64,000 nucleotides of DNA from Myxococcota bacterium (GTDB lineage Bacteria > Myxococcota_A > UBA796 > CAJQPC01): NCBI GenBank assembly GCA_036012755.1, contig DASCPX010000016.1:170599-234598 (forward strand). Reading direction: 5' to 3'. Position 1 is the first letter of the stretch, and each line of letters begins with the position of its first letter. The notes below the pieces were generated by a model. The model ran no database searches. It was given only the letters and a program-made list of their open reading frames with translations, and was not told the origin of the DNA. Shown one piece after another: positions 25,112 through 43,076 of this stretch. The translations under genes were made by a program, and so were the position numbers.

Positions 25112-26791
25112 TCAGAACGGAAAGGCCAGCGCGAGCGAGGCCTGGGGTTCGCGGGGACCTCTGACCTCCGCCTCGACCCACACCCACTCCCTGACGAGGA
25201 CACGGGTGCCGGCGGCGAGCTCGTACTCGGCGATGCCGTCGAGGCGGACCCAGCGGGTCCCTCCCATGAGCCAGAGGTCCCGCCACACCCTCGCCTCTGC
25301 GCCCGCGAAGGCCTCGAGCTGGCGGAAGTCGCCGCGGGAGCCGAACTCGACGTTCAGCAGGTCACGTTCGACCCACTGGAGGCTCCAGGAGCCGCCCGAG
25401 GCCGCAGCCCCGATCCCCAGGGCGTAGCGGTCGCCCTCGACCACCGCTCGCGCCGAGACGTGGTGGCGCTCTTCTGCCCACTCATCGTCGAAGATCGGCG
25501 GCGCGTCATCCAGCAGCCCGCCGCCGTTCCAGCGGCCACGCCAGGTGGCCTCGACGTACCCACCGTCAAGCTGCAGGCGCGGGGTCGCCCGGAGCTGGAC
25601 CAGCTGGCCGATGACCTCGAGATCGTCGATGTCCTGGCGGATGCCGCCGATGCCTGCCTCGCCCACGACCGAGAATCTCTGGCCCATCCTCAAGGAGACG
25701 TTGGCGCCGCCCTCGCTGATCGGGGCCGCCGTGTAGCCCCATGCGGTGGCGCCGACCGCCGTCCCGGGGATGGTGATGATGCCCGTGATCGTCCGCCCGA
25801 CGGAGCCCCGACCGCCGAGCAACAATGGGGTCGTGCCGCTGTCGTCCTGGAAGGTCGGGCCGCCGTCGAGGGCGACCCCGTCGACGTCACTCCGGCCAGG
25901 CACCACCTGGCTGTAGAGGCCCTCTACGACGAAGCCCGAGTCGTCCCTGGCTTCACCCATCGCCAAGCTGGTGGTGGTGCCCTCGAAGGTCCAGCTGCTG
26001 CGGGCCTCCAGCACGCGCAGCTCGGTGCCCGGGAGCTCTGCCCCCATGCGGTCCATCGCCGCCGGGAGCGCTCCAGTGGTGGCCACCGAGCGAGTGCGGC
26101 CTCCGTCGAAGCGACGAGGCACGCGCTCGACCACCCAGGCCTCACGGACCATCGGCATCATCGGCTCGACGCCCTCGAGCTCGTCGTAGCCCCCCCGCGG
26201 TCTGGGGCCGCCGAGGTAGCCCTGGTCCAGGGCCACGTCGACGGCCTCGGCGAAGGTCAACAGCTCGGCCCCCTGCACGCGGTCGGGCACGAAGGACACC
26301 AGCGTGAAGATGCCCTCGCGGTTCCAGCCCTCCTCGGTCAGTCGCTCGAAGGCCGCCAGGTCCGCCTCCAGCGCCGGGTCCGGAGCGCGCCTGCCGCTGC
26401 CTTCGTAGAAGAGGACGAGCAGCGCCTCGACCTCGGCCGGTCCCGGAGCGTAGCCGAGGGGCTCGTCAGAGACCTCGCCGAGCACCTCGTTCGGATCGTA
26501 GCCCTCCGGCAGGACGAGATCCTCCTCGTAGTCCAGGGCCGCCGCGAGGTGACTCTCGAGGATGCCGGAGAGCGTGTAGGCATCAGCACCCTCCACGTAG
26601 GCGACGATGTAGCGCACGGCTTTTTCGAGCTCGGCCGCGCTGTGGTCGCTCTCGAGCAGCGCCTCGATGTCGTCGTCGAGGAAGGCGGTCGGCACGGGCT
26701 TGCCGAGCTGCTGGTAGTAGAGGCGGGCGATGCGCTCGGCGTCGGCCTCGGAGAGCTCGGCGGCGAAGGCGCTGGCGACCAGCAGGATCAC
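25112..26791 (-). CDS. Exported protein: duplicated N-terminal helical domain plus probable outer-membrane beta-barrel
   Basis: MILLVASAFA signal; two similar ~65-aa helical units; amphipathic strands ending in terminal Phe. Confidence 0.55.
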   Translation of the reverse strand: MILLVASAFAAELSEADAERIARLYYQQLGKPVPTAFLDDDIEALLESDHSAAELEKAVRYIVAYVEGADAYTLSGILESHLAAALDYEEDLVLPEGYDPNEVLGEVSDEPLGYAPGPAEVEALLVLFYEGSGRRAPDPALEADLAAFERLTEEGWNREGIFTLVSFVPDRVQGAELLTFAEAVDVALDQGYLGGPRPRGGYDELEGVEPMMPMVREAWVVERVPRRFDGGRTRSVATTGALPAAMDRMGAELPGTELRVLEARSSWTFEGTTTSLAMGEARDDSGFVVEGLYSQVVPGRSDVDGVALDGGPTFQDDSGTTPLLLGGRGSVGRTITGIITIPGTAVGATAWGYTAAPISEGGANVSLRMGQRFSVVGEAGIGGIRQDIDDLEVIGQLVQLRATPRLQLDGGYVEATWRGRWNGGGLLDDAPPIFDDEWAEERHHVSARAVVEGDRYALGIGAAASGGSWSLQWVERDLLNVEFGSRGDFRQLEAFAGAEARVWRDLWLMGGTRWVRLDGIAEYELAAGTRVLVREWVWVEAEVRGPREPQASLALAFPF

Positions 26792-28158: not shown

Positions 28159-29453
28159 TGCAGTCCGACCGGGAGGTACCAGAGCGTGAGCGGGATCGCG
28201 AGGGCCAGGGTGACCAACAGCGCCGCCAGGCGCCAGCCGCGGATCGCAGACCCGGGCGCCGCGAGGAAGCCAGCGGTCCAGATCAGCCAGAGCCCGTCGA
28301 GCGGGACGCGGAAGCGGGTCGTGCCCAGGAGCACCGCGACCACGGCGCAGTGGTAGAGCACGATCAAGAGCGTGATGGGGAAGAGCCAGCTCCGACCCCG
28401 AGCGAAGGCGCCGACGCTGCCTCCCCAGACGGTGAGCAGGGAGAACCCGATCGTGCCGAGGCAGAGGAACTCGGCGACAGGCGCGGGCAGACCCTTGTAG
28501 CGCCCGGCTCGGACCTTGCGCGTGAGGAAGCTGTTGGGGTTGAAGAGGAAGGCCTCGCGCTGGGGGATCCGGCGCAGGAACTCCGCTGGGTTGTCCCGGA
28601 TCCAGCCCAGCGCCGTGTCACGCTGGCAGTCCGCCCACTCGGTCCTGGGGAGCTCGATGTCGCACATCGGTCGGCCGGTGGCGGTGATTCGCCTGAACTC
28701 GGCGGTGCTCTGGCTGAGCCCGTGGTCCCAGGTGATCAGCGGGAAGTCGTTGTTGCTCAGCCACAGGTTGTGACCGAGGGTGGTGTCCGTGATGACCACG
28801 CCGCCGAACTTCTTGCTGGCGTAGATCGAGTAGGGCGCGACGGTGAGGATCGCGACGAGCGCCATGGCGCCGGCTTGTCGCCATTGCCTTCGTGGCACGA
28901 AGGCCAGCATGAAGATCGGGAGCAGGTATGTGGCGACCCCCCGCAGGAGCACCGACAGGCCGATGAGCAGGCCCGCCAACAGTGCCCACCGCCAGGATCG
29001 ATCCCGGGCCAGGCCGATGGTGTAGAGCGTTCCCAAGAGCAGCGTCAGGTAGATGGACTCGGTCCAGAGGTGACCGGCGAAGAAGGCCAGGGTGGGGCTC
29101 AGCGCGTAGAGCCACGCGGCGATGCGTCCGGCGCGCAGATCCAGGTGGTCCCGGGCCAACAGGTAGACGAGGACCTGCGCGACGCCGAAGCCGACGACCT
29201 GTGTGACGAGGCCCACGTCTGCCCAGCCGGAGAGCACCTCGTGGGCCGCGAGGAAGGTCACGTAGCCCGGGGCCCAGACGTAGGGGATGAAGGTGTCGGC
29301 GGTCATGCCCTCGCCTGCCGCCATGCGGTGGGCGAGCTGCAGGTAGGAGCACTCGTCCCTGGTGCAGGGCACGTCCCACCAGAAGATGAAGGGGAAGGCA
29401 CGGAGCACCAGCCCGACCACCAGCGAGGCCAGGAGCCAGCGGTCGCGCCTCAC
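28155..29453 (-). CDS. ArnT/PMT-like (GT-C) membrane glycosyltransferase
   Basis: Early loop RDECSY; LWTESIY; about 11 TM segments; RFRVP near C-terminus. Confidence 0.8.
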   Translation of the reverse strand: MRRDRWLLASLVVGLVLRAFPFIFWWDVPCTRDECSYLQLAHRMAAGEGMTADTFIPYVWAPGYVTFLAAHEVLSGWADVGLVTQVVGFGVAQVLVYLLARDHLDLRAGRIAAWLYALSPTLAFFAGHLWTESIYLTLLLGTLYTIGLARDRSWRWALLAGLLIGLSVLLRGVATYLLPIFMLAFVPRRQWRQAGAMALVAILTVAPYSIYASKKFGGVVITDTTLGHNLWLSNNDFPLITWDHGLSQSTAEFRRITATGRPMCDIELPRTEWADCQRDTALGWIRDNPAEFLRRIPQREAFLFNPNSFLTRKVRAGRYKGLPAPVAEFLCLGTIGFSLLTVWGGSVGAFARGRSWLFPITLLIVLYHCAVVAVLLGTTRFRVPLDGLWLIWTAGFLAAPGSAIRGWRLAALLVTLALAIPLTLWYLPVGLQ

Positions 29454-29923
29454 TTCTCGAGGCGTTCCTCGAGCTCGGCCAGGCGAGCACGGAGCGCGTC
29501 CAGCTCGTCATCCGAGGCGCGGAGTGGCGGCTCGGGATCGGGCTCCGGGGCGTCGGGGGCGCGGGGGGCCTGCTGTCCGGGCCTGAGCATCGCCTCGACC
29601 TGGTCCATCTGGGCGGAGACCAGGGCCAGGCCTGTCGTGAGCTGCTCGCGCAGCATCGCCTGCCAGGGATCGTCGCCGGTGGACCGGATCATGCGGTGGA
29701 GCATCGAGGTCGGGATCAGCTCGGCGCCGCCAAGGGACTTCAGCACCACCTCGCCGAGGACCTGGGGCGTCAGGTCCTCTTCGGTCTTTGCGTCCACCAC
29801 CTGCACCGTCGTCCCCTCGCGGATCATCGCCGCGAGCTCCTCGAGGTTCAGGTACCTCGAGGCCGAGGTGTCATAGAGGCGCCTGTTGCCATATTTCTTG
29901 ATGGTGACCACGATCGACGACAT
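29450..29923 (-). CDS. phaR: Polyhydroxyalkanoate synthesis repressor PhaR
   Basis: IKKYGNRRLYDTSASRYLNLEELAAMIREG..VQVVDAKTEEDLT; adjacent pha genes. Confidence 0.92.
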   Translation of the reverse strand: MSSIVVTIKKYGNRRLYDTSASRYLNLEELAAMIREGTTVQVVDAKTEEDLTPQVLGEVVLKSLGGAELIPTSMLHRMIRSTGDDPWQAMLREQLTTGLALVSAQMDQVEAMLRPGQQAPRAPDAPEPDPEPPLRASDDELDALRARLAELEERLEK

Positions 29924-30173: not shown

Positions 30174-30839
30174 ATGCCCTTCGCGCTCAGCGGCGACTGC
30201 CACATCTACTGGACCGCCATCGGTCGCGGCCCGCCCATCGTGCTGGTCCGCGGACTCGCCCGCTCCCACCGCTACTTCGAGCCGATCGTCCCGTACCTGG
30301 CCCGCTACTTCCGGGTGATCCTCTTCGACAACCGCGGCTCGGGGCGCTCCGATCGCCCTGCGGGTCCCTACTCCTCGGACCAGATGGCGGATGACGTCGT
30401 GGCGGTCATGGACGCTGCTGGCGCTCGAAGTGCCTGGATCCTCGGCATGTCACTCGGCGGCATGATCGCGCTGGATACGGCTCGGCGCCATCCCCGTCGG
30501 GTGAGCGGGCTCGTGCTCGGATCGTGCACGGCGCGGGGCCGTGGCTACCCGACTCGCGTCCCGCTCTGGCCGAAGCTCCTGCTGGCGATCAGCGCGCTCT
30601 TGCCTCGCTCGATGGGGCGCCGCGTCCAGGCCTTCGTGACCCTGAGCGATGCCTTCATGGACCGCGCCGAGCTCGAGATCGTCGCCGACTGTGGCCACAA
30701 CATCGAGACCGAGCAGCTTGGCTGGATGGCCCGCCGCGTCCTGGTCTTCGTGGACACCCACGCGTCCGAGGCGCCCTACGCCAACCAGGCCCCAGCGAGG
30801 ACGACAGGTACGCTCAAGACTGCGCCGATCGCCAGGTAG
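30174..30839 (+). pseudogene. Alpha/beta hydrolase with apparent in-frame internal deletion
   Basis: GMSLGG nucleophile elbow and CGH His present, but the strand carrying the catalytic acid is absent (junction near 30657). Confidence 0.6.
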
Positions 30840-31183: not shown

Positions 31184-31247
31184 CGCGAGCGCATGGTCCC
31201 ACGCGGATGTGCAGGAGCTGTGCAACTCGATCACGCGGCCAGTTTTT

Positions 31248-31284
31248 TGCGTTGCAACAAGAAAGTCCTTGTTGCAACGCAGCA
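31248..31284. promoter_or_regulatory. Putative PhaR operator (perfect 14-bp inverted repeat containing TGC-N3-GCA)
   Basis: TGCGTTGCAACAAG-aaagtc-CTTGTTGCAACGCA in an AT-rich patch about 40 bp before the phasin-like ORF. Confidence 0.75.
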
Positions 31285-31321: not shown

Positions 31322-31492
31322 ATGTTCGAGACCGAGCAGTACCAGGATGCGGCGGAGCGCTACTTCGCCCTTCAGAACGAGTCCATCAAGGTGGCGATGA
31401 AGCAGTGGGAGACCACTATGGAGGCGCAGAAGGCCATGACGAAGGCCCTGCTCGCTGCCTCCTGGGCTTCCAAGCCCGAGGCGACGTCCTGA
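31322..31492 (+). CDS. 56-aa phasin-like amphipathic helical protein
   Basis: RBS AAGGAG; MFETEQYQDAAERYFALQNESIKVAMKQWETTMEAQKAMTKALLAASW; flanked by operator and hairpin; precedes phaE. Confidence 0.65.
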   Translation: MFETEQYQDAAERYFALQNESIKVAMKQWETTMEAQKAMTKALLAASWASKPEATS

Positions 31493-31500
31493 GTCCGCTG

Positions 31501-31530
31501 ACGCAGCAGGGGATCGTCCCTGCTGCGTTT
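31501..31530 (+). terminator. Hairpin after the phasin-like gene (terminator or mRNA-stabilising stem)
   Basis: ACGCAGCAGGG-gatcgt-CCCTGCTGCGT, 11-bp stem with short T tail. Confidence 0.6.
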
Positions 31531-31576
31531 GCACATCCGATTTGACGCATTGCGGCATCTGGAGTAGAGAGAGACC

Positions 31577-32041
31577 ATGAGCGACACCGAGATGTACAAG
31601 GCCTGGGAGAAGGCCATGACCCAGTGGTGGGACACCGTGCTGGACTCCCCTGCCTTCGTGAAGGGCATGGGGCAGGGTCTCGCCGGCCACAGCAGGACCC
31701 GGAAGGCCTACGAGGATCACCTCGACCGGAACATGGAGGCCATGCACCTCCCCACGCGAAAGGACCTCGTCCGCGTCGCGAAGATCTGCAGCCTCCTCGA
31801 AGATCGGCTGCTCGGGTTGGAGGACCGCCTGCTGGAGCTCGAGGATCAGCGCGTCGAGGCCGAGAAGCTCTCCCTCCAGGCGCGCATCGACGCCGCCGAG
31901 GCTCGGCTGGAGCTGAAGGGCCGCCTCTCGTCGATCGAGGCGAAGCTCGACGCGGCGCTCGCTACAAAGGCCGCCCCGAAGGCCAAGGCTGCGCCGAAGG
32001 CCGCCTCCACGAAGCGCAAGGCTCCGGCGAAGAAGAAGTGA
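31577..32041 (+). CDS. phaE: PhaE-like PHA synthase accessory subunit with Lys/Ala-rich tail
   Basis: LDSPAFVK and MHLPTRKDL motifs, coiled coil, directly upstream of phaC. Confidence 0.72.
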   Translation: MSDTEMYKAWEKAMTQWWDTVLDSPAFVKGMGQGLAGHSRTRKAYEDHLDRNMEAMHLPTRKDLVRVAKICSLLEDRLLGLEDRLLELEDQRVEAEKLSLQARIDAAEARLELKGRLSSIEAKLDAALATKAAPKAKAAPKAASTKRKAPAKKK

Positions 32042-32973
32042 TGTTGCAGCGCGCCATCGACGCGGCCGCTTTCCTCGCTACGGATCCGATCGGCCAGGCG
32101 CGACCAGGCGCCTCGCCACACACCGTGATCCACTCTCAGGCCTCCGCGAAGCTGCGCTTCTTCGCCTCCACCGGCCGGCGCGCCCTCTTCGTGTGCATGC
32201 CGCTGATCAACACGTGGACGATCTGGGACCTGCTCCCTGGACACAGCGTGGTCGCGGCCCTGGTCGATGCGGGCATCGACGTCTACGTGCTCGACTGGGG
32301 CAAGCCCGGCCCGGAGGCCGAGGATCGTCCCCTGGACCACTACGTCGACGAGATCCTCGGGCGGGCGCTGGACAGGGCTCGCCGCCACGCTGGCACCACC
32401 CTCGACGTTGCTGGTTACTGCGTCGGGGGCACCTTCCTGGCCTGGCACCTGGCGCGGAATCGGCCCGAGGTGCGCTCCGCTGCCTTCGTGGCGACCCCGA
32501 TCGACTTCCACGCCTCCGGGCGCCTTTCACGCTGGGCCGACCCGGCCCACTTCCCGCTGGATGCCCTCCACGGCAACTTCCCAGCGGAGCGCCTGCGCGC
32601 GAGCTTCGCCTGGCTGAAGCCGATGGGTCAGGCTCGGAAGTGGAGGTCGCTCTTGGAGCGACCGCAGGCCCGCGAGCTCTGGGCGCACCTCGAGTCCTGG
32701 TCCCGTGACGGCGTGGACTTCCCGGGGCGCGCCTACCGCGAGTACGTGCGTGCCTGCTACTTCGACAACCGCCTCCGCGAGGAGCTCGGTGGTGTCGACG
32801 TGCCTGCTCTGAGCGTCGCCGCGAGCCGGGACCACATCGTGCCTCCGCCGGCCGCGCACGACCTCTCGGCGGTCTGGGACGGCCCGGTCACCGAGAGGAC
32901 GCTGCGTGGTGGCCACGTCGGCATCTGCCTCGAGAAGGCGCTGCCAGCGGCGCTGTCGGAGTGGCTCTCGTGA
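32041..32973 (+). CDS. phaC: Class III-type PHA synthase catalytic subunit, copy 1
   Basis: PLINTWTIWDLLPGHSVV, VYVLDWG, GYCVGG, RDHIVPP, GGHVG; TGATG overlap with phaE. Confidence 0.85.
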   Translation: MLQRAIDAAAFLATDPIGQARPGASPHTVIHSQASAKLRFFASTGRRALFVCMPLINTWTIWDLLPGHSVVAALVDAGIDVYVLDWGKPGPEAEDRPLDHYVDEILGRALDRARRHAGTTLDVAGYCVGGTFLAWHLARNRPEVRSAAFVATPIDFHASGRLSRWADPAHFPLDALHGNFPAERLRASFAWLKPMGQARKWRSLLERPQARELWAHLESWSRDGVDFPGRAYREYVRACYFDNRLREELGGVDVPALSVAASRDHIVPPPAAHDLSAVWDGPVTERTLRGGHVGICLEKALPAALSEWLS

Positions 32974-33941
32974 TCGCGGAGATGTCTCGCGGTGCCTGGC
33001 TCCTCGCGAGCCACCCACGGCCGCCCGTCGGGCAGAGCGCCCACAGGGTGATCCACGTCCACGACAAGCTGCGGGTCCGCTTCTACGCCGGCGCCGGGGC
33101 CTGCCCCATCGTCATCGTCCCGAGCCTCATCAACCGAGCGTGGATCGTCGACCTCGAAGAAGATCGGAGCCTCGTGCGGGCCCTGACCGAAGAGGGCCAC
33201 CCGGTCTACCTCGTCGACTGGGGCGTGCCCGGCCCGGAAGACGCTGACGAGGACGTCGCCTACGTGCTCGACTCACTGCTCGCGCGGGCCCTGCGTCGCA
33301 TCCGCCGACACGCGAGGGCTCCGGTGTGCCTGCTCGGCTACTGCATGGGCGGCACCCTGGCGGCGATGTGCTTGGCCCGGCATCCAGGCCTCGCGGAGCG
33401 GCTCGTCCTGCTGAACGCCCCCTTCCGCTTTTGCGAGGGTGGGCGCTTCTTCGACCTCTGTCGCGATCTCGACGTCGAGGCGCTGATCGACAGCGACGGC
33501 CTCGTGCCGGTCGAGCTCATGAAGCCCGCCTTCTCGATGCTCGACCCAGCCGGCAACTTCACGAAGCTCGTCGCGATCGAAGAGGCCAGCCGGGACCCTC
33601 GCCGCATGCTCCGCACGATGGCTCGCGAGCGCTGGCTCGAAGAGAACGTGCCCATGCCAGGGGCCTTCGCGCGGGAGTGGATCCGCCACACCTACCAGGA
33701 CGACGATCTGCTCGATGGCGCCTGGGTGATCGGGGACTCCGCTGTCGACCTGGCCGCGCTGGACCACCCCACCTTGGTGCTCGCCGCCGAGCGCGACTTC
33801 ATCGCGCCTGTCGCCAGCGTGCTCCCCGTCGCGGAGGTCATCCCGGGGGCCACCGTAGAGGTCCTCCCGACCGGTCACATCGGCGCGGTGGTCGGGCGCT
33901 ACCTCCCGCGGCTGGTCCAGAGGATCCACTCGTGGCTCTGA
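32970..33941 (+). CDS. phaC: Class III-type PHA synthase catalytic subunit, copy 2
   Basis: PSLINRAWIVDLEEDRSLV, VYLVDWG, GYCMGG, RDFIAP, TGHIG; GTGA overlap. Confidence 0.88.
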   Translation: MIAEMSRGAWLLASHPRPPVGQSAHRVIHVHDKLRVRFYAGAGACPIVIVPSLINRAWIVDLEEDRSLVRALTEEGHPVYLVDWGVPGPEDADEDVAYVLDSLLARALRRIRRHARAPVCLLGYCMGGTLAAMCLARHPGLAERLVLLNAPFRFCEGGRFFDLCRDLDVEALIDSDGLVPVELMKPAFSMLDPAGNFTKLVAIEEASRDPRRMLRTMARERWLEENVPMPGAFAREWIRHTYQDDDLLDGAWVIGDSAVDLAALDHPTLVLAAERDFIAPVASVLPVAEVIPGATVEVLPTGHIGAVVGRYLPRLVQRIHSWL

Positions 33942-35305
33942 GCTGGGCGCTGTTCCTCGTCTACGCGGTGCTGACGGCGCTGTTGGCCTGGAGAGGTGGG
34001 CGGCAGTCGTCCACCGGCGCGGGCTTCGCCATCGGCAGCGGGCGCATGTCCTGGTGGGTCGCCGGCATCACCCTGGGTGCTTGCCTGGCGTCCTCTGCCA
34101 CCTTCGTCATCGTGCCCGGCTTCGTGTACTCGGAGGGGCTCCCGGCGCTCGTCGGCTTCACCGCCCCCTTCATCGCCGGCATCGCGCTCGGGCTCTTCGT
34201 CTTCACGGGCCCCTTCAAGGAGCGCACGCGAGGTGCCCTCACGGTGCCCCACTGGCTCGGCGAGCGCTACGACAGCCCCGCCCTGCGCAAGCTCTTCGCC
34301 GGGCTCAACGTGCTCAACGTCGCCTACCTCGTGCTCATCACGGTCGGCTGTGGCTACGTGATGCAAGCGGCGCTGGGGGTGCCCTACCCCGTGGCCGTGG
34401 TCGGCATCGTGGCCTTCGTCTTCGGCTACACGGGCTTCGGCGGCGCCGGGGCTCATGCCCTGACCAACACCCTGCAGGGCATCGTGATGCTCGTGGTCGC
34501 CGTGGTCATCGCCTCGGCGGGCCTCGATCAGCTCGGCGTCACCTGGCAGAGCCTGGCCTCGACCGGCTGGACGGCACCGGACAGCCTGCTCTTCTCCACC
34601 CCCGGCGAGGTCTGGCTCGTGCCCTTCTTCATGGGCATCGCGCTGACCACCCAGCCCCACCTGCTGTGCAAGGCGCTCTACGTCGCCGACCGGGCTGCGG
34701 TGCGCAAGATGGTGGTCGTCGCGATCCTGTGCTTCGCGGTCTTCAGCCTCGTGCTGCTCGCTGGCGCCCACGCCCGCGTGGTGCTCCCAGAGGGCATCGC
34801 CCAGGACCAGGTCATGGCCACCTACCTCGTCGAGGCCTTCCCCTGGAAGCCCCTGTCCGCCCTGGTCAGCGTGGCGATCCTCGCCGCCAGCATGAGCACC
34901 CTGGACGGTCTCCTCGTCGCCATCGCCGCCAGCGTCGGCGGTGACCTCTTCGAGCGCCCCTCGGTCTCCCGCAACCGGCTCGTGCTCGCCGGGCTCGCGG
35001 TCGTGACGGTCGCCATCGCCCTGTCACCTCCGCAGCTCGTGCTGATCCTCGGTCAGCTCGGTGTCTATGGCCTCGTCGCGGCCTCCGCGGGCCCCTTGCT
35101 CGCCGGACTCTTCAGGGATGGCCGCCTCCACGCCGTCCCGGCGCTGTGCTCGGCCATCGTGGCCTTGATCGTGCACTTCGGTCTCGCGCTCACGGTCTTC
35201 GACAACCCGGGCCTGGCAGCCTGCGCCGCGGTGGCGGTCGGAATACCGATCGCGCTGTTGCCCGTGCCTGCGCTGTCGGCGGCACCCAAGAGGGAGAAGG
35301 CGTGA
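33932..35305 (+). CDS. Sodium:solute symporter (SSS; PanF/MctP-like)
   Basis: About 13 TM; SSATFVIVPGFVY, LGERYDS, ILAASMSTLDGLL. Confidence 0.9.
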   Translation: MALSWALFLVYAVLTALLAWRGGRQSSTGAGFAIGSGRMSWWVAGITLGACLASSATFVIVPGFVYSEGLPALVGFTAPFIAGIALGLFVFTGPFKERTRGALTVPHWLGERYDSPALRKLFAGLNVLNVAYLVLITVGCGYVMQAALGVPYPVAVVGIVAFVFGYTGFGGAGAHALTNTLQGIVMLVVAVVIASAGLDQLGVTWQSLASTGWTAPDSLLFSTPGEVWLVPFFMGIALTTQPHLLCKALYVADRAAVRKMVVVAILCFAVFSLVLLAGAHARVVLPEGIAQDQVMATYLVEAFPWKPLSALVSVAILAASMSTLDGLLVAIAASVGGDLFERPSVSRNRLVLAGLAVVTVAIALSPPQLVLILGQLGVYGLVAASAGPLLAGLFRDGRLHAVPALCSAIVALIVHFGLALTVFDNPGLAACAAVAVGIPIALLPVPALSAAPKREKA

Positions 35306-36627
35306 GCTGGACCGGAGACCACCAGGGACTCGCGCTCTCGGATCAGCGGCGGAGCTGGACCTATTCCCAGCTCCGGGACGAGGCCGCGCGCTGGGCCGGC
35401 ACCCTCGCGGCCCGCGGCGTCGAGGCAGGAGACCGCGTGGCGCTGCTCGCCAGGAACCGCGGCGAGTTCATCGTCCTGCTGCTTTCCTGCGAGCACCTCG
35501 GCGCGATCTTCCAGCCGATGAACTGGAGGCTGTCCGAGGCAGAGCTCGACTGGCAGATCGCGGACTCGACCCCCCGAGTCGTGCTGCGCGACGCGGACCT
35601 CGACGAGGGCCCCGGCGACGCGGCGATCCGCGGTGACGAGCGCGCCGAGACCGAGCCCTGGATGCTGCTCTACACCTCTGGCACGACCGGCAAGCCGAAG
35701 GGAGCCCTGATCACTCACGGGCAGGTCCGGGCCAACGCCGCGGTCACCCTCGGGGCCTGCGAGCTGACCGCCGAGGACAGCACGCTGACCTTCACGCCCC
35801 TGTTCCACACCGGCGGCCTGAACTGCCTCACGACGCCGCTGTTGCGCGTCGGTGGTCACGTGGTCCTGCGCCCCTCTCTGGAGGACGCGCTTGATGTCAT
35901 CCGGGACGAGGGCATCACGCTGTTGACCGGCGTGCCGACGATCTACCAGTTCCTCTCCGAGCGTCCCGGCTTCTCCGAGGCGATGGGTTCTGTTCGGGAC
36001 GCCCTCTGCGGCGGGGCCCCGCTGTCGCTGACGCTGCTCCAGACCTACCTCGAGCTCGGCATCCCGCTGCGGCAGGGCTTCGGCCTCACGGAGGTGGGGC
36101 CCAACTGCTTCTCCACGCCACCGCAGCGCGTGCGCGAGAAGCTCGGGACCGTCGGTCGACTCGTGCCCGGGCTGGAGGCCCGCCTCGTCGACGGCGAGCT
36201 TCAGCTGCGCGGCCCGATGGTCTTCGGCGGCTACTGGGGCCACCCTCCCCACGAGGGCTGGTTTCACACCGGCGACGTCCTGCAGGTCGACGACGAGGGC
36301 TTCTGGTCCGTCACAGGGCGCAAGAAGGAGATGTTCATCTCCGGCGGAGAGAACGTCTACCCGGCCGAGGTCGAGGCAGCGCTCTATGCCTGCGGCGGCA
36401 TCGCCCAGTGCGCGGTCATCGGCGTGGAGGACGAGCGCTGGGGCGAGGTCGGACGAGCCTTCGTCGAGCCCAGTCCGGGGGCGACGCTCTCGCCAGAGGC
36501 TCTCCACGGTGCCCTCCAAGGACGCCTGGCCCGCTACAAGCAGCCCAAGCGCATCGAGGTGCTGGCTTCGCTGCCCCGCACTCCCAGCGGCAAGATCGAC
36601 AAGCAGCGACTCGGAGAGATGCCGTGA
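35302..36627 (+). CDS. AMP-forming acyl-CoA synthetase
   Basis: YTSGTTGKPKG, GFGLTE, WFHTGD, GRKKEMFISGGENVYPAEVE, PRTPSGKIDK. Confidence 0.93.
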   Translation: MSWTGDHQGLALSDQRRSWTYSQLRDEAARWAGTLAARGVEAGDRVALLARNRGEFIVLLLSCEHLGAIFQPMNWRLSEAELDWQIADSTPRVVLRDADLDEGPGDAAIRGDERAETEPWMLLYTSGTTGKPKGALITHGQVRANAAVTLGACELTAEDSTLTFTPLFHTGGLNCLTTPLLRVGGHVVLRPSLEDALDVIRDEGITLLTGVPTIYQFLSERPGFSEAMGSVRDALCGGAPLSLTLLQTYLELGIPLRQGFGLTEVGPNCFSTPPQRVREKLGTVGRLVPGLEARLVDGELQLRGPMVFGGYWGHPPHEGWFHTGDVLQVDDEGFWSVTGRKKEMFISGGENVYPAEVEAALYACGGIAQCAVIGVEDERWGEVGRAFVEPSPGATLSPEALHGALQGRLARYKQPKRIEVLASLPRTPSGKIDKQRLGEMP

Positions 36628-37106
36628 TCCTGCTCCTTCTGGCCTGCCTTCCAGAGGATGTCGCGCTCGACGACTCCGTCCCGGTCCTCGACGACACCGC
36701 CGCCGCGAGCACCGAGCCCCTCTACGGCCAGTGGATCTCCGACGGAGCGGACATCAGCCCGCTGTTTTCCGGCGCACCCTTCGAGTACCTGAGCATCGAC
36801 GCTGTCTTCGGGGACGAGGGCTACGAGGTGGTCGGCCACACGGCAGACGACGACTACACCTTCGCCGGGACCTTCACGATCGACACCTCGAGCACTCCAG
36901 CCTCGATCGAGCTCATCCAGACCCAGCCCGGAAACGCCGTGGCCCGGGGCATCTACCTCGTCGAGGACGAGGTGCTCACCTACGAGGTCGTCCAGGTCGA
37001 GCCGGACTATGGCTACGCGCCCCCGACCCCGGAGGAGGGCTTCGGCTCCACCACCGGCCCCAACCTCTCAGAGGGCGACAACGTGCAGGTCTACCGCAGA
37101 CCGTGA
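36624..37106 (+). CDS. Hypothetical beta-rich (lipocalin-like) lipoprotein
   Basis: GTGA-coupled; MILLLLAC; LYGQWIS strand followed by further beta strands. Confidence 0.7.
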   Translation: MILLLLACLPEDVALDDSVPVLDDTAAASTEPLYGQWISDGADISPLFSGAPFEYLSIDAVFGDEGYEVVGHTADDDYTFAGTFTIDTSSTPASIELIQTQPGNAVARGIYLVEDEVLTYEVVQVEPDYGYAPPTPEEGFGSTTGPNLSEGDNVQVYRRP

Positions 37107-38521
37107 TCTGGATCTGTGCCGCATTCGCGCGAGAGCCGGTCGAGGCCCTGAGGCCCGTCGAGGAGCCCCCGGATGTGGGCCTCGACTTCGTGGGGCTCGC
37201 CCAGGTCAAGACCTCGGGCACGAACGTGGCCACCACGAACGCCTTCCTCGATGGGCAGGTCATCGGCGTGATCGACGGGGACTCGGGCGCAGACGCCGGG
37301 GACTCCCTGAGCCACTTCAGCGAACAGCGCGTGGCGGCTTTTCTGGGCTACCGTCCGCCGCTGTTGGATGGCCACGCGGCCCTTCACGGCGGCTTCGAGA
37401 TCGACTTCGCCTTTGGAGACGCCGCCTACGGCATCGGGGGCAACACCGGCGGCGGCTTCGGCGGCGACCAGGTGAACCTCCAGACCCGCCGCCTCTACGT
37501 CGAGGTCGACAGCCAGCTCTTGCGACACGAGCAGGACTGGAGGGTGGGCCTGCACTTCGTGAGCGACGGCGTCGGACTCCCGGAGGAGGGCCTCGACGCC
37601 ATCTTCCGCAGCGGAGCACGCGGCACGGTCTTTGCCAGCGAGGCAGCCGGCGCCTCGCTCCACGGGCAGCTCCCCGAGCGCTTGCGATACAGGCTCGGGG
37701 TCTACAAGCTCGTCGAGAACGCCAGCTCGCAGCCGGACGACGTCACCCTGGGCATGGGGGATGTCGAGCTGCAACCCGGCTGGCGCACGCGGGTGGGCCT
37801 GCACGCCTGGTACCTGCGAGATCGCTCGGATGGCCAGGGCGGCGCCCTGGGCGTGGGGCCTTCATCCTCGACCTCGGCGCTCCAGGGGGGCCCCTCTCTG
37901 GACGTCGATGGGGACGTAGACGTCACCTGGCTGGGGGCCGACGCCGGCTGGAACGCGGACCTGCGCCGCGGTGACCTCGGAGCCCACGGCGTCGCCTTGG
38001 CTCACCTCGGCTCCCTCGGCGACGTCGACGCCCAGGGCTTCAGCGCCAACGGCGAGGCCCGCTGGCGTTGGACCGCGGGCAAGGGCAGCGTGCTCCGGGC
38101 AGAGGTCCTCTATGCCACTGGCGATTCCGTGTCTGATGTCGGCTACACCGGCGTCCTCACCGGAAACACCTGGGGCATCGCGGGGGCCAACCACACCACC
38201 CACGGCACCCTGTTGCTGCACCCGGATCTCTTCTCTATCAACCGCCAGGTGAGCCACACCGGCGACCTGGCGGCCTCTGGGCGGGGCCAGCTCAGCTTCA
38301 CCGGGTCACTGGGCTACGACCCCGTCCCAGACCGCCTGACCGTCCAGTTCGGCGGTGGTCACGCGAGCTATGGCGGCGGGACCTCGGCCCAGGAGATCAA
38401 CCTCCGGGTGCTCGGCGAGCCCTACCTGTTCATGCGGACCGGTCTCTCCGGCGCCTACCTCGCGAGGCCGGGCACGGACGCCTGGATCGTCTACGCCTCC
38501 TTCGACTGGCTGGTGATCTGA
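37103..38521 (+). CDS. Probable outer-membrane beta-barrel/porin
   Basis: GTGA-coupled; short signal MIWICAAFA; GFEIDFAFGD, NLQTRRLYVEV, amphipathic strands to the C-terminus. Confidence 0.65.
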   Translation: MIWICAAFAREPVEALRPVEEPPDVGLDFVGLAQVKTSGTNVATTNAFLDGQVIGVIDGDSGADAGDSLSHFSEQRVAAFLGYRPPLLDGHAALHGGFEIDFAFGDAAYGIGGNTGGGFGGDQVNLQTRRLYVEVDSQLLRHEQDWRVGLHFVSDGVGLPEEGLDAIFRSGARGTVFASEAAGASLHGQLPERLRYRLGVYKLVENASSQPDDVTLGMGDVELQPGWRTRVGLHAWYLRDRSDGQGGALGVGPSSSTSALQGGPSLDVDGDVDVTWLGADAGWNADLRRGDLGAHGVALAHLGSLGDVDAQGFSANGEARWRWTAGKGSVLRAEVLYATGDSVSDVGYTGVLTGNTWGIAGANHTTHGTLLLHPDLFSINRQVSHTGDLAASGRGQLSFTGSLGYDPVPDRLTVQFGGGHASYGGGTSAQEINLRVLGEPYLFMRTGLSGAYLARPGTDAWIVYASFDWLVI

Positions 38522-39450
38522 TGCCCCTGAACGCCTTGTTCTTCGGCCTGGCCTGCGCGCCCCGGTATGGCTCCGCGCCACCGCTGGCGCCATCCGAGCT
38601 CCACGCGCCCCTCCCCGTGTCCCACGTCGATCTCGACGGTGTCCGTGTCGCCTACGCGAGCGCAGGGGAAGGCACGGCCCTGGTCTTCCTGCACGGCCTG
38701 TCCTCCTACATGGGCTACTGGGAGCACCAGCTCCCACACTTCGCACAGTCCCACCAGGTCTTCGCGCTCGACCTCCCGGGCTACGGGATGTCGTCACGCC
38801 CGGACGCGCCCTACACGCCTCCCTGGTTCGCCCAGACGGTGGTGGACTGGATGGACGAGGTGGGCTTGTCCTCAGCGGTCTTCGTGGGCCACTCGATGGG
38901 CGGACAGGTCGCCCTGACCCTCGCGCTCGAGCACCCAGAGCGTGTAGACGCCCTCGTGCTCGCTGCCCCCGCCGGAATCGAGACCTTCTCTCCGGGCGCC
39001 GCTGACTGGATGAAGGGCTGGTGGACCGAGTCCAGGGCCATGGAGTCCACGGAAGAGGACATCCGCGCCACGATGACCACCATGGTGTTCAACGTCCACG
39101 ACGAGGGCGTCGAGCGGCTCATCGAGGAGCGGGTTCGGCTGGGTCGTCACGAGGACTTCGGCGGCACCTCGGTGGCCGTCTCCCGCAGCATCGCGGGCAT
39201 GCTCGACCACCCGGTCGCCGGGCGCCTGTCCGAGGTCTCCGCCCCGACGCTCATCGTCTTCGGCGAGGACGATCGCATGATCCCGAACCCGGTCTTCACC
39301 GGCGGCCGCACCTCGGCCATCGCGAAGCAGGGGCAGCGGTCCATTCCGGGCTCCTCGCTGGTCCTGGTCCCGAGGGCCGGCCACACCGTGCACCACGACG
39401 ACCCCGGCGCATTCAACGACGCAGTCGAGCGCTTCCTGGAGGGCCTGTGA
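38521..39450 (+). CDS. Lipoprotein alpha/beta hydrolase
   Basis: GLAC lipobox; FLHGLSS, GHSMGG, GEDDRMIP, AGHTVH. Confidence 0.92.
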   Translation: MPLNALFFGLACAPRYGSAPPLAPSELHAPLPVSHVDLDGVRVAYASAGEGTALVFLHGLSSYMGYWEHQLPHFAQSHQVFALDLPGYGMSSRPDAPYTPPWFAQTVVDWMDEVGLSSAVFVGHSMGGQVALTLALEHPERVDALVLAAPAGIETFSPGAADWMKGWWTESRAMESTEEDIRATMTTMVFNVHDEGVERLIEERVRLGRHEDFGGTSVAVSRSIAGMLDHPVAGRLSEVSAPTLIVFGEDDRMIPNPVFTGGRTSAIAKQGQRSIPGSSLVLVPRAGHTVHHDDPGAFNDAVERFLEGL

Positions 39451-41123
39451 TCTGGATCGCGACCGCGCTGGCGACCACCGACTTCACCGGTACGCCCGTC
39501 ACCACCTACACCGGCGAGGAGACCTTCCTCCAGGACGGCTCCGTGCAGCTGTGGGGGCAGATCGAGCTCCACGAAGACGGAGACCGCCTGCTGTTTGTGC
39601 AAGAGGACTTCAACGACTCGCTGGAGTGGCCAGCGGACAGCGACTGGGCTCCGTGGATCCACCAGATGTTCGGCACGGGGGACCCTCACTCCTCGAACTT
39701 CCTGCTGCACTCGGCCCCGCTGGAGCCCATCTCGGAGGGCACGCCCATCCTGCTCGTCCCCGGGGCCGGAGACAACGGCAGCCGTGGCTTCATCGTGATG
39801 GCCTCGCGCCTGGACGGCAGCGGGCGGCCCGTGTTCGTCCTGACCTTCGCCCACCCCCACGGCGATGTCTTCATGCAGGCCGAGATCGTAGCGGATGCCA
39901 TCGAGCGCATCAGACAGCGGCGAGGCGTCTCCCAGGTCGACGTGGTAGGCCACAGCAAGGGAGCCATCGCCGCCGCCGTCTACGCCAGCAACCACTCTTC
40001 GGCCTCCTGGCCGAGCAGCGCCTATGAGCAGGTCGGGACCGAATATGCGAACGATATTCGCCGGTTCGTTGCGATCGGTGCTCCCCTGGACGGCATCGAC
40101 ACCGCCTACCGGTGGCCGGCCCAGAACTGGCTCTCTCTGGAGAGCGACGAGGCCTTCTCGCCCTCGTCCTGGAGCACCTACTACCCCTACACGACTGCCA
40201 ACCTGTACGTGACGCAGGACCTCTCCGAGCAGGACCACCTCTCTGATGGGGGCGACCTCTTTCCAGGCCACCGCCAGCTGCTTCGGCGCCAGGCGCACGC
40301 CCTGCCGGGTGAGTCCTTCCTCGGTCCGTACTCGGTCCAGCAGGACTGGTACACGACCTACGAGGGCGGCCTTGGCTACGTCAGCTGGAGCGAGGGCATC
40401 GACGCGGCCATCGACGACGCCGGCGACTTGCTGGCGGCGCTCGAGGAAAACGGCGTCGATCCAGAGGTCGAGCTCTTCGTGCTCGCCGGAGAGAACCCGC
40501 TCTTGCACAACGGCGCTGAGTACCAGTGGATCGCAGCCTTTGGAGAGAGCTGGGTGGACGTGGCCACCGCTGGCCTCGACGCGTGGGCCGAGCTGCTGGC
40601 AGAGGCCGCGGAGGAGGCTGGAGTCGTGGACATCGACCCGGACGAGCTCCGTGGGCTGGTGCAGGGCAAGCTCGTGCTCGGCGAGATCAGCGGGCCCTCC
40701 GACGGCCTGGTGTTCCTCTCCAGCGCGACGCGGGTCGAGACCCTCACCGGCCGAGGAGCGAGCGTCGGAGAGCTCCGCGTGGTCGACCTGGCCCACCTCG
40801 ATCTGCTCTATGCCTCTGAGATCACCGGACAGATCCTCATCGACGCCGGCGAGGCCGATCCAACGGAGGACGGCTGGATGCGGGCCGTCGGCGAGCGGTA
40901 TGTCGAGGCGGACACCCTCGGCTGGGTCGAGACGGTCCTCGCCGATCCCGACACCGACGAACCCGACATCGACGACACGGGGTTCGTCGAGGACGACGAC
41001 CCTGGCGATCCGGACGGCTCCGGGCGCCTTGCCCGCAACTGTGATGGATGCGCCAGCGGCACCGGGGCCCTCGGCGCGGCCTGGCTGGGGCTCCTGGTGC
41101 TGCGGAGGAGACGATGGAGTTGA
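39447..41123 (+). CDS. Exported lipase/esterase-like hydrolase with MYXO-CTERM-like C-terminal anchor
   Basis: PILLVPG, GHSKG, SDGLV, HLDL; tail GCASGTGALGAAWLGLLVLRRRR. Confidence 0.8.
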   Translation: MIWIATALATTDFTGTPVTTYTGEETFLQDGSVQLWGQIELHEDGDRLLFVQEDFNDSLEWPADSDWAPWIHQMFGTGDPHSSNFLLHSAPLEPISEGTPILLVPGAGDNGSRGFIVMASRLDGSGRPVFVLTFAHPHGDVFMQAEIVADAIERIRQRRGVSQVDVVGHSKGAIAAAVYASNHSSASWPSSAYEQVGTEYANDIRRFVAIGAPLDGIDTAYRWPAQNWLSLESDEAFSPSSWSTYYPYTTANLYVTQDLSEQDHLSDGGDLFPGHRQLLRRQAHALPGESFLGPYSVQQDWYTTYEGGLGYVSWSEGIDAAIDDAGDLLAALEENGVDPEVELFVLAGENPLLHNGAEYQWIAAFGESWVDVATAGLDAWAELLAEAAEEAGVVDIDPDELRGLVQGKLVLGEISGPSDGLVFLSSATRVETLTGRGASVGELRVVDLAHLDLLYASEITGQILIDAGEADPTEDGWMRAVGERYVEADTLGWVETVLADPDTDEPDIDDTGFVEDDDPGDPDGSGRLARNCDGCASGTGALGAAWLGLLVLRRRRWS

Positions 41124-41839
41124 GGGACGTCCGAGCGCTGGTGACCGGCGGCGCCAGCGGCATGGGGGCGCACTTCGTCGAGCGGCTCGGGGACGAAGGA
41201 GCCGGAGTCTTCTCCTGCGATATCCAGCCCTTGGACGGCGGGACCGTGGCGGACGTCTCCAGCGAGGAAGACGTGACCCGCTTGTTCCTGGAGGCCGAAG
41301 CGGCTCTGGGCGGGCCGGTGAACCTGCTCGTCAACAACGCCGGGATCATCCGGGACGGCCTGCTCGTCAAGCGCGATCGCGACACGGGAGAGCTCTCGAC
41401 CATGTCGACGACGAAGTGGCAGCAGGTCCTCGACGTGAACCTCACTGGCCCCTTCCTGTGCATGCGGGAGTTCGCTCGGCGGGCCATCGAGAGCGAGACG
41501 AAGCCGGGCCTCGCCGTCAACATGTCCTCCATCAGCCGGGCGGGGAACCCTGGCCAGAGCAACTACGCCGCCGCGAAGGCTGGCCTCGTCGCCGACACCG
41601 TGCTGTGGGCCAGGGAGTTGGCTCGGTACGGACTGCGGGTCGTCGCCATCGCCCCCGGCTTCGTGCGCACGCCGATGGTCGAGTCGATGCCGCCCCAGGC
41701 CCTCGAGCGCGCCCTGAAGCCCGTACCGATGCGTCGCCTCGGCGAGCCGGAGGAGATCTGGACTGCTCTTCGCTTCTGCATCGAGTGCAGCTACTTCACG
41801 GGCCGCGTGGTCGAAGTCGACGGCGGACTTCGCCTATAA
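41114..41839 (+). CDS. SDR oxidoreductase, FabG/PhaB-like ketoacyl reductase
   Basis: TGGASGMG, NNAGI, NYAAAKAG, APGFV; last gene of the pha operon. Confidence 0.9.
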   Translation: MELRDVRALVTGGASGMGAHFVERLGDEGAGVFSCDIQPLDGGTVADVSSEEDVTRLFLEAEAALGGPVNLLVNNAGIIRDGLLVKRDRDTGELSTMSTTKWQQVLDVNLTGPFLCMREFARRAIESETKPGLAVNMSSISRAGNPGQSNYAAAKAGLVADTVLWARELARYGLRVVAIAPGFVRTPMVESMPPQALERALKPVPMRRLGEPEEIWTALRFCIECSYFTGRVVEVDGGLRL

Positions 41840-41843
41840 CAGG

Positions 41844-43076
41844 TCAATATTGCTCGATGTTTTCATCGATCCAGGCCAGGCGCGCGGGGATCCACTCCCG
41901 GATCTTCTCAACCTCTGCGTCGTAGTCTTCGACCACGGGCAGGTAGCCTCCGAGGAAGTCGATGTCGTCCCAGACCCAGACCTCGAAGTTCTCGTAGGCG
42001 GCGTCACCGAGGAGCTCGCGCTGGGCCTCGAAGCGCGCCAGGGCTGCCTCGTCGGACAGCGTGCCCTCGCGGAGCTCGAACCAGCGCGCCGCCAGGGCCT
42101 CTGAGAAGCCCTCTGCGCTGGTCATCCTCGCCACCCACGTCGGTCTGTACAGGATCCAGCCGGTCGGCACGACGTTGTCGTTGTAGGTCGGCTGGCCGAA
42201 GGTGAGGTCGAGGTCCCAGGGGGTGAAGGCCATCAGGCCGGAGGCGTCCCGCCACAGGTGCACGCTCAGGTAGTAGGCGTCGTTGTTCTTCATGAACTCC
42301 TGCAAGAGCACGAAGTCGATCGCCGAGTCCCGATCGAGCACGTCGAAGATGGCGTCGGGATCGTCCAGGATCGCCGCCTGCCAGGAGGCGAGGATCTGTT
42401 GGATGGCGCTGATCTCCTCGGTGGTCGGCGCCTCTGGGTGGACGGGCGCCCAGGTGCCGAAGCCGACAGCGTCGTTCGGGTAGATCCCGCCCTGGTCGTC
42501 GAGCTTCAGCACGAAGCCCTCTTCGTCGATGTCGATGCGGGCGGCGTCCCGCTTGACCCGCTCGACCAGGAAGTAGATGCCCCAGTCGGCTCCGTCCAGG
42601 CGCAGCTGGCAGGTGCGGCTCTCTGGCCCGTAGTGCTCGGGGCTCCAGTCCTGGTACAGATCGTAGCCGTACTTGTTCCGCGTCAGGGCCCGGTCGATCC
42701 AGGCACCGTTGAGCACCCAGTCGCTCTCTGCGCCCATGCCGAAGAGATCGACCTCGAGGGCCTCTCCGTCCCTGCGCAGCTCGACGGCGTACTGCTTCTT
42801 CGGGAAGCCAGAAGAGCTCCGCCCGCGGATCTCGACCCCTGCCTCCCCGTCGAAGAGCACGAGCCCCTCGGCGTCGGCGATCTCGAGATCACAGTCGATC
42901 TTCGGCTCGTCGGGGATCGCCTGTCCGCAGTCCAGCTCGATGCGGCAGATGCCCTCCGCGACGCCCGGGACGTCCTCGACTCCGCTGTCGTCCGGGTCCT
43001 CGATGGGGATGGAGTCGGAGTCCACCGGCAGCGAGGGCACGCTCGGGTCGGTGCAGGACAACAAGGCGAGGACCAT
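41844..43076 (-). CDS. CotH kinase-family lipoprotein
   Basis: MVLALLSC; IRGRSS..FPKKQY, DRALTRN, YFLVE, NNDAY, PWDLDLTFG. Confidence 0.9.
   Translation of the reverse strand: MVLALLSCTDPSVPSLPVDSDSIPIEDPDDSGVEDVPGVAEGICRIELDCGQAIPDEPKIDCDLEIADAEGLVLFDGEAGVEIRGRSSSGFPKKQYAVELRRDGEALEVDLFGMGAESDWVLNGAWIDRALTRNKYGYDLYQDWSPEHYGPESRTCQLRLDGADWGIYFLVERVKRDAARIDIDEEGFVLKLDDQGGIYPNDAVGFGTWAPVHPEAPTTEEISAIQQILASWQAAILDDPDAIFDVLDRDSAIDFVLLQEFMKNNDAYYLSVHLWRDASGLMAFTPWDLDLTFGQPTYNDNVVPTGWILYRPTWVARMTSAEGFSEALAARWFELREGTLSDEAALARFEAQRELLGDAAYENFEVWVWDDIDFLGGYLPVVEDYDAEVEKIREWIPARLAWIDENIEQY

Follow-up and report, generated by a model that had tools for sequence, protein, structure and literature searches.

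Why should the genes that make a storage polyester run without a break into genes for predicted exported hydrolases, a predicted outer-membrane channel and a predicted importer? The question is raised by an operon in a 64,000-nucleotide stretch of DNA from a Myxococcota bacterium (GenBank assembly GCA_036012755.1, contig DASCPX010000016.1, positions 170,599 to 234,598 of the forward strand; hereafter, the window), whose genome of 6.7 Mb is 96% complete. A first-pass annotation described ten genes, from the polyhydroxyalkanoate (PHA) synthase gene phaE to a short-chain dehydrogenase/reductase (SDR) gene, that overlap by 1-10 bp, and read them as a chain for scavenging and re-storing polyester or lipid. 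The ten open reading frames (ORFs) do lie on the + strand with nine overlapping junctions (4, 4, 10, 4, 4, 4, 1, 4 and 10 bp), and family scans back the gene labels; the lipoprotein and the barrel have no Pfam or NCBIfam match. The genes are listed here, with the fold and localisation of the proteins as predicted.

31577..32041, + strand: phaE, short PhaE-like synthase subunit of 154 aa (PF09712 E 3e-4, TIGR01834 E 3e-4, TIGR02132 E 1e-4, all below cut-off)
32038..32973 (start 32038/41), + strand: PhaC1, class III-like PHA synthase (TIGR01836 147 bits, cut-off 365)
32970..33941, + strand: PhaC2, class III-like PHA synthase (TIGR01836 182 bits, cut-off 365; 33% identical to PhaC1)
33932..35305, + strand: sodium:solute symporter, accessory, predicted inner-membrane importer (PF00474)
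35302..36627, + strand: acyl-coenzyme A (CoA) ligase, predicted activator of the imported hydroxy acid (PF00501, PF13193)
36624..37106, + strand: lipoprotein of no named family, directly before the barrel, with a lipobox-like N-terminus
37103..38521, + strand: predicted 18-stranded outer-membrane beta-barrel, AlgE/Occ-like, predicted uptake channel (AlphaFold2 pLDDT 87)
38521..39450, + strand: hydrolase1, lipoprotein alpha/beta hydrolase, predicted periplasmic oligomer hydrolase (S125 and D251 invariant and H288 in 99% of 68 sequences)
39447..41123, + strand: hydrolase2, secreted alpha/beta hydrolase with a MYXO-CTERM-type tail, predicted surface PHA depolymerase of a new family (S170 (HSKG), D419 and H450 invariant)
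41114..41839, + strand: SDR (PRK08217-like), accessory paralogue, predicted NAD-dependent 3-hydroxyacyl-CoA dehydrogenase (NF006072 268 bits, PhaB models 128-142 bits, all below cut-off)

We conclude that the substrate is likely to be a PHA of some kind and, with somewhat less assurance, that the cluster probably scavenges external polyester of the poly-3-hydroxybutyrate (PHB) type and re-stores it, by surface hydrolysis, channel uptake, trimming in the periplasm, CoA activation and re-polymerisation or oxidation. The strongest evidence for PHB scavenging is gene replacement. The polyester assignment follows from the genes that replace hydrolase2 and from the link to phaR-phaE-phaC, not from hydrolase2's own sequence. 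The scavenge-and-re-store interpretation of the first-pass annotation gains support, both from conserved synteny and from PHB-depolymerase-family genes in the place of hydrolase2, for substrates that are predicted.

Conservation of the cluster and replacement of hydrolase2

The barrel is present in 23 of 41 close genomes and in 40 of 301 genomes of the phylum. We compared 20 of the 22 relatives' loci drawn from the close genomes. The order phaE-phaC-ligase-lipoprotein-barrel-hydrolase1-hydrolase2 is kept in 18 of the 20; of the other two, one runs into the end of its contig and the other has just the three core genes (lipoprotein, barrel and hydrolase1). Five families of the order share this synteny. 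Outside the class, another five loci (L042, L049, L051, L052 and L054) keep the genes in rearranged form, so that the downstream genes are indeed conserved with phaEC. The ten-gene chain held as a unit in part: the symporter (2 of 20 relative loci) and the SDR (adjacent in 4 of 20) are accessory, and both were rejected as core genes.

For wider comparison, we assembled 78 loci with a barrel ORF of at least 300 aa (barrel fragments below 300 aa were left out), of which 51 have at least 3 kb of upstream and 2.5 kb of downstream flank; L054, in which no genes were called, and L070 and L119-L123, in which no barrel ORF was called, stand outside both counts. All 51 well-flanked loci carry a lipoprotein and hydrolase1, 40 a ligase, 31 phaC, 11 a FabH-like beta-ketoacyl synthase III (KAS III) and 7 the symporter. 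Across the 78 loci, hydrolase2 was found in 31, a member of the type-1 depolymerase family in 15 and a PhaZ7-like protein in 7, and these never co-occur; the 25 loci with none of the three are mostly short. Exactly one of the three is present in 44 of the 51 well-flanked loci (hydrolase2 in 29, type-1 in 11, PhaZ7-like in 4). The type-1 neighbours are spread over several separate clades of the barrel tree. Two of three that were scanned pass NF050058 (260 and 274 bits, cut-off 150); the third, at 142 bits, falls below it and passes TIGR01840. The PhaZ7-like neighbours match PhaZ7 structures (E 4e-24) and keep the AHSMG motif, scoring 100 bits on the PhaZ7 model (cut-off 450), and their family aligns with hydrolase2 around the nucleophile with a probability of 77%.

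The same exchange is seen at the level of whole genomes. We profiled 49 genomes with the barrel and 24 without it, the second set drawn from the same order, with counts compiled by hand from search tables; seven of the 24 were screened for the barrel with a single protein only, and the one weak match of a single barrel protein to genome contigs (E 3e-4, L021) was not used. Hydrolase2 occurs in 44 of 49 barrel-positive versus 2 of 24 barrel-negative genomes, and phaC in 48 of 49 versus 4 of 24. In each of the five barrel-positive genomes that lack hydrolase2 (G136, G140, G145, G232 and G286, from three genera and two families), a gene matching NF050058 lies 1.8-4.8 kb away from the barrel gene and in the same orientation. 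Among the other 44, a weak NF050058 match lies within 10 kb of the barrel only in G104 and G108, where hydrolase2 is elsewhere, with phaC. Since there are 1-8 such genes in 3-10 Mb, a chance neighbour within 10 kb is expected in about 1-2% of genomes. Where hydrolase2 is away from the barrel, it stays by phaC (G040, G104, G108, G126 and G247).

Two further observations concern depolymerase-family genes. This genome has a separate NF050058 type-1 gene at contig C169:303-1106, just over the cut-off with 153 bits. In L046 (10772-13528), L065, L067, L068 and L072, a long ORF extends from a PHB-depolymerase-family domain in the direction of the lipoprotein. The 918-aa ORF of L046 contains a MYXO-CTERM-like segment in its interior and, after it, a lipoprotein-like signal, a combination that suggests a lost stop codon or a polyprotein cut by myxosortase; we did not count it as a true domain fusion.

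Proposed route from the surface to the polymer

We infer the substrates, the direction of transport and the source of the polymer in the route that follows. First, surface-anchored hydrolase2 would cut PHB from lysed or preyed cells into 3-hydroxybutyrate (3HB) oligomers. Hydrolase2 has 558 aa, with an acidic linker and large insertions, and ends in a cysteine motif, a hydrophobic helix and an arginine cluster, in which C535 and R554 are invariant in 17 sequences; TIGR03901 (MYXO-CTERM) matches 4 of 14 members, the window's own protein not being among them. In PMC11980579 the MYXO-CTERM tag is reported to sort proteins to the cell surface. Among solved structures, Bacillus-type lipases come closest to hydrolase2 in sequence (E 1e-10), followed by PhaZ7 (E 3e-3). 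The PhaZ7 model matches 9 of 14 members weakly (best E 7e-7), and the nucleophile motif is GHSKG, SHSKG or AHSKG, as against AHSMG in PhaZ7.

Second, the barrel and the lipoprotein would pass the oligomers to the periplasm. A Foldseek search with the predicted barrel returned AlgE (E 1e-14, TM-score 0.57) and OccK/OccAB (E 1e-10). The predicted 18 strands agree with AlgE, but PF13372 and an exopolysaccharide operon context are lacking: the protein has no Pfam match at E 0.01, and its neighbours are hydrolases, a ligase and pha genes. The barrel is single-copy in this genome, and a search of plasmids gave no match to it. The lipoprotein family or a second one (lipoB) accounts for the lipoprotein in all 51 well-flanked loci (hhalign probability between the two, 28%); structural look-alikes are lipocalin-like, with TM-scores of 0.5-0.6, and serve as leads only.

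Third, hydrolase1 would trim the oligomers to monomer. A lipobox-like motif is found in 55 of 68 sequences; on NF050089, the intracellular PHA depolymerase model, hydrolase1 scores 81 bits (cut-off 300), and this is not its best match. A search with the oligomer hydrolase family PF10605 was uninformative, since it gave no match in any control genome. Fourth, the acid would be imported by the sodium symporter or, in other lineages, by a major facilitator superfamily (MFS) carrier, of the kind present in other loci. The symporter gene also adjoins phaC in G001, G174, G201, G265 and G039. We rejected a role as pantothenate carrier, as the PanF model TIGR02119 gives 84 bits against a cut-off of 328.

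Fifth, the ligase would make 3-hydroxyacyl-CoA without BdhA. In 45 of 47 genomes no more than 3 kb separates its gene from phaC; of the two exceptions, one is due to a contig break and the other is a genome without phaC. Sixth, PhaE-PhaC1/C2 could polymerise the 3-hydroxyacyl-CoA directly, bypassing PhaA and PhaB; alternatively, the SDR could oxidise it to acetoacetyl-CoA for the genome's thiolases. The catalytic residues C127, D264 and H292 are invariant in 23 aligned PhaC proteins from both paralogue clades, and the G-x-C-x-G-G box and Cys-Asp-His triad of class III synthases are present. TIGR01836 is the best model for both PhaC1 and PhaC2, at scores below 365 bits, and none of the 73 genomes passes its cut-off. 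Among 18 phaC-bearing relative loci, 14 have two phaC genes and 4 lack PhaC1. PhaE is kept in 18 of the 20 relatives' loci; of PF09712 and TIGR01834 it covers the C-terminal part alone, and it also matches the class IV PhaR model TIGR02132. We found no other PHA synthase in this genome. The SDR has D36 in 17 of 18 aligned sequences, and a residue of this type goes with NAD preference. The SDR family occurs in 68 of 73 genomes, the cluster copy being a second paralogue in this genome.

The absence of a phaA thiolase from the window, as described in the first-pass annotation, was borne out by a search that was run with a control and that was also empty for 119 loci, 41 of them with phaC. Elsewhere in the genome, four thiolases exceed the TIGR01930 cut-off. 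The linked phaA and phaB of a canonical pha operon are absent, with the SDR far from the PhaB cut-offs of 302-436 bits, and the genome has no PhaB over cut-off. Neither BdhA nor acetoacetyl-CoA synthetase was found in this genome. BdhA exceeds its cut-off in one of 73 genomes (best 30 of up to 71 candidates per genome scored); its rarity is a property of the lineage, since barrel-negative genomes are among those without it. The proposal of direct re-polymerisation follows from the ligase adjoining phaC and from the lack of linked phaAB and of BdhA.

Competing explanations and regulation

A number of findings weigh against polyester scavenging. Seven of the 51 well-flanked loci have none of the three hydrolases, and the PhaZ7-like neighbour is convergent, on the opposite strand, and limited to one clade. 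NF050058-like genes occur widely, with 1-8 copies in 60 of 73 genomes; of the five replacement genomes, three have matches over the cut-off and two below it, and the five represent only three genera. Related genomes are not independent, and in the comparison of 49 with 24 the barrel-negative genomes are mostly smaller. Hydrolase2 is closer to Bacillus-type lipases than to PhaZ7, and scores 20 bits on the PhaZ7 model NF050060 (cut-off 450). Its structural model is mediocre (pLDDT 64) and matched only generic alpha/beta hydrolases, tied at Z 13.4-15.6, with PhaZ7 absent among the fold matches listed. The best fold match of the barrel, AlgE, is an exporter; the nearest solved relatives of the ligase are fatty-acyl/feruloyl-CoA synthetases (8weu/8wev, 288 bits; FadD13, 211 bits). 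Finally, the BdhA search scored at most 30 candidates per genome, and thiolases, a CoA transferase and FabG-like reductases elsewhere in the genome may supply monomer de novo.

The module might instead scavenge ordinary lipids, such as acylglycerols or hydroxy-fatty-acid esters, with fatty acyl-CoA reaching PHA only via beta-oxidation. The lipase-like sequence of hydrolase2 fits this, as do homologues labelled triacylglycerol lipase in some sources and the ligase's top NCBIfam match, a long-chain fatty-acid CoA ligase; the accessible part of a preprint (bioRxiv 10.64898/2026.07.24.740503) also links Arctic Myxococcota metagenome-assembled genomes (MAGs) to many fadL genes and triacylglycerol synthesis. 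However, it is PHB-depolymerase-family genes that replace hydrolase2, the barrel is predicted to have 18 strands and resembles AlgE/Occ proteins, FadL being absent from the fold matches listed, and none of the 119 loci has a thiolase. We consider lipid scavenging unlikely.

A second alternative accepts PHB scavenging but has the acid burned via the SDR and thiolase, PhaEC being fed de novo and merely sharing the regulon. In 10 of the 51 loci the lipoprotein-barrel-hydrolase1 core is accompanied by KAS III, ligase and TetR, and phaC is not nearby. This catabolic form (TetR-KAS III-ligase-MFS or symporter) shows that the module can operate without storage; re-storage is hence one of two outputs. 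G141 has a TetR-symporter-ligase-hydrolase1-SDR operon (L134:4393-9550), a minimal catabolic version; no phaC and no barrel were found in that genome. The genome studied here has thiolases and FabG-like reductases outside the cluster. Yet the ligase remains with phaC in genomes whose barrel module lies elsewhere (G136, G140, G145 and G126), and in the genome studied here no PhaB exceeds its cut-off. We regard burning as the sole fate as improbable.

KAS III recurs with ligase and TetR in a second barrel clade (L043, L044, L050, L073, L074, L076, L079, L080, L083, L094-L096, L100, L103 and L104). This clade occurs in cultured myxobacteria, and 59 metagenome loci were retrieved with it. Two barrel-less genomes have a parallel module beside a 521-aa PhaC (L139:6696-14089 in G039 and L143:2612-8473 in G034), with a symporter (G039 only), a lipoprotein, a hydrolase1-like enzyme, a 537-aa protein and a second lipoprotein. 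The 537-aa protein is possibly another barrel (hhalign probability to the barrel family, 2.6%).

The operon is also larger than its ten genes. Those genes stand as described, but a divergent phaR, a small ORF and two PhaR-type boxes had been overlooked:

29450..29923, - strand: phaR, PHA-responsive transcription regulator, divergent (PF07879 84 bits, cut-off 25, E 6e-24)
31247..31284, no strand: two inverted PhaR-type boxes, predicted operator (TGCRNYGCA at 31248 and 31273; 15-pair palindrome)
31322..31492, + strand: 56-aa ORF, likely a phasin-like granule protein judging from its position (84 bp before phaE, at the start of the span given in the first-pass annotation)

phaR stands beside the cluster in 15 of 20 relative loci and inside the operon, between the hydrolases, in the five loci outside the class. 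The second box fits the PhaR consensus TGCRNYGCASMA reported for Bradyrhizobium (PMC6201568). TGCRNYGCA has three matches in the whole window, two of them the operon boxes, versus a chance mean of 5.5; because the number is not above chance, the evidence for the boxes is their position and conservation. In 13 of 18 relatives the motif occurs in the 700 bp that precede phaE; its density there is 1.35 per kb, versus 0.14 per kb elsewhere in the relatives' loci (about tenfold). A scan for sigma-70 promoters was empty. The likely regulator of the operon is PhaR, acting via the two predicted boxes. The 56-aa ORF has no family match in the Pfam and NCBIfam scans; small Q/M/A-rich ORFs of 75-100 aa occupy its position in many relatives, and on position it is likely a phasin-like granule protein.

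Could the barrel instead serve to export the product of PhaC1/PhaC2, a polyester or oligomer, in the way that AlgE exports alginate, with the hydrolases trimming it? AlgE is the best fold match, Atlas look-alike clusters have PF13372 in 17% of members, and the two divergent PhaC proteins have intact triads. However, some barrel loci without a nearby synthase have secreted depolymerase-family genes and importers, and PhaR, its boxes and the phasin-like ORF point to intracellular granules, so that we regard export as very improbable. It is likewise very improbable that the module takes up aromatic acids released from esters such as feruloyl esters, an idea that draws on feruloyl-CoA synthetase 8wev as nearest relative of the ligase, on the aromatic acid/H+ family as best match of the alternative MFS carrier (102 bits, cut-off 419), on OccK channels among the barrel's fold matches and on the feruloyl and acetylxylan esterases that PF10503 also contains, but that is opposed by the tight link to phaR-phaE-phaC, by the PhaZ7-like neighbours and by the lack of recognised ring-cleavage or ferulate genes in gene maps where not every neighbour is annotated.

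Other genes lie around the operon. Between phaR and the operon is a 221-aa alpha/beta hydrolase (30174-30839, +) whose family matches span only the first 120-170 residues; a CotH-kinase-family lipoprotein (41844-43076, -) converges on the operon's end. Neither was found in the relatives' loci. Two consecutive 559-aa ORFs (23432-26791, -) lie upstream of genes that look, from sequence appearance only, sulfatase-like and membrane glycosyltransferase-like. Among the sequencing runs checked, the holders of this DNA are marine metagenomes. Near-identical contigs lie on the region in four runs other than those marked as possible sources; contigs of run X6 tile most of it, with no single piece spanning the whole. 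No RNA dataset is among the listed runs that hold the region's DNA. Named homologues are mostly from Myxococcota MAGs.

Relation to known systems

Our search of full-text literature, in which subscription journals are largely uncovered, returned no description of this cluster, and the system is apparently undescribed so far. The accessible part of PMC11821767 describes PHA genes in the majority of Myxococcota bins and has no mention of this module; its supplementary tables may list such genes. In what is accessible of PMC13101487, a 2026 genetic screen in Burkholderia, no uptake element was found for the products of medium-chain-length PHA and passive diffusion is proposed. PMC13642032 lists three usual downstream enzymes, with no mention of Myxococcota in its accessible portion. 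How PHA breakdown products cross the envelope of Gram-negative bacteria thus appears to be an open question, for which the cluster offers a candidate channel, lipoprotein, periplasmic hydrolase and carrier. The idea is testable, since barrel homologues are present in myxobacteria that have been cultured, namely Stigmatella aurantiaca DW4/3-1 (ADO68091.1), Melittangium boletus DSM 14713 (ATB30160.1) and Archangium violaceum.

More tentatively, and with the balance of our judgement slightly against it, this may be a locus dedicated to polyester utilisation. Its barrel would be the first channel of the outer membrane that is specific for PHA oligomers, hydrolase2 would represent a new family of PHA depolymerases anchored at the surface, and the ligase would hand prey-derived 3HB directly to PhaEC, with no need of PhaA, PhaB or BdhA. 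Myxococcota would then rob their prey of stored carbon and keep it intact as a reserve of their own. If the scavenging reading itself is right, predators would drive a loop of storage carbon in sea, soil and sludge; current surveys of PHA degraders would miss a new depolymerase family; and the route from free 3HB to PHA would be useful for bioplastic recycling.

The system is built from known superfamilies and is widely conserved, and it falls outside the canonical pha operon, PhaZ7 and AlgE. With class III PHA synthase loci (phaE-phaC with phaA/phaB, phaP and phaR) it shares a PhaC of about 35 kDa with the G-Y-C-x-G-G box and Cys-Asp-His, a PhaE-like partner, PhaR and a phasin-like ORF. Unlike those loci, it has two divergent tandem PhaC proteins and a 154-aa PhaE, with scores that fall well short of the cut-offs. 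Thiolase genes are absent from the 41 loci with phaC, and the cluster has a CoA ligase and predicted envelope uptake genes instead. Like hydrolase2, PhaZ7 of Paucimonas lemoignei (PDB 2vtv) and the catalytic type 1 enzymes (NF050058) are secreted Ser-Asp-His hydrolases, and members of both families take the place of hydrolase2 in related loci, whereas hydrolase2 itself, with its HSKG nucleophile, insertions and MYXO-CTERM-type tail, passes neither model. The barrel resembles AlgE and the OprD/Occ carboxylate channels in its predicted 18 strands (TM-score about 0.5-0.6), but shares 9-15% identity with them, has no alginate genes nearby and is always flanked by a lipoprotein and a lipoprotein hydrolase. 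A precedent for a predator hydrolysing prey polyester is Bdellovibrio bacteriovorus, which degrades prey PHA with the secreted depolymerases Bd3709 and Bd2637 (PMC4834554, for which a correction on strain identity is listed). In the accessible part of that paper, the predator made no PHA under the conditions used and no uptake channel is described, whereas here the synthase and uptake genes share one operon.

Polysaccharide utilisation loci combine a surface hydrolase, a lipoprotein and channel, a periplasmic hydrolase, an inner-membrane carrier and a regulator. The cluster resembles them in this outside-to-inside logic, but differs in that its predicted substrate is a polyester instead of a glycan, its channel is not TonB-dependent and its output includes a polymerase.

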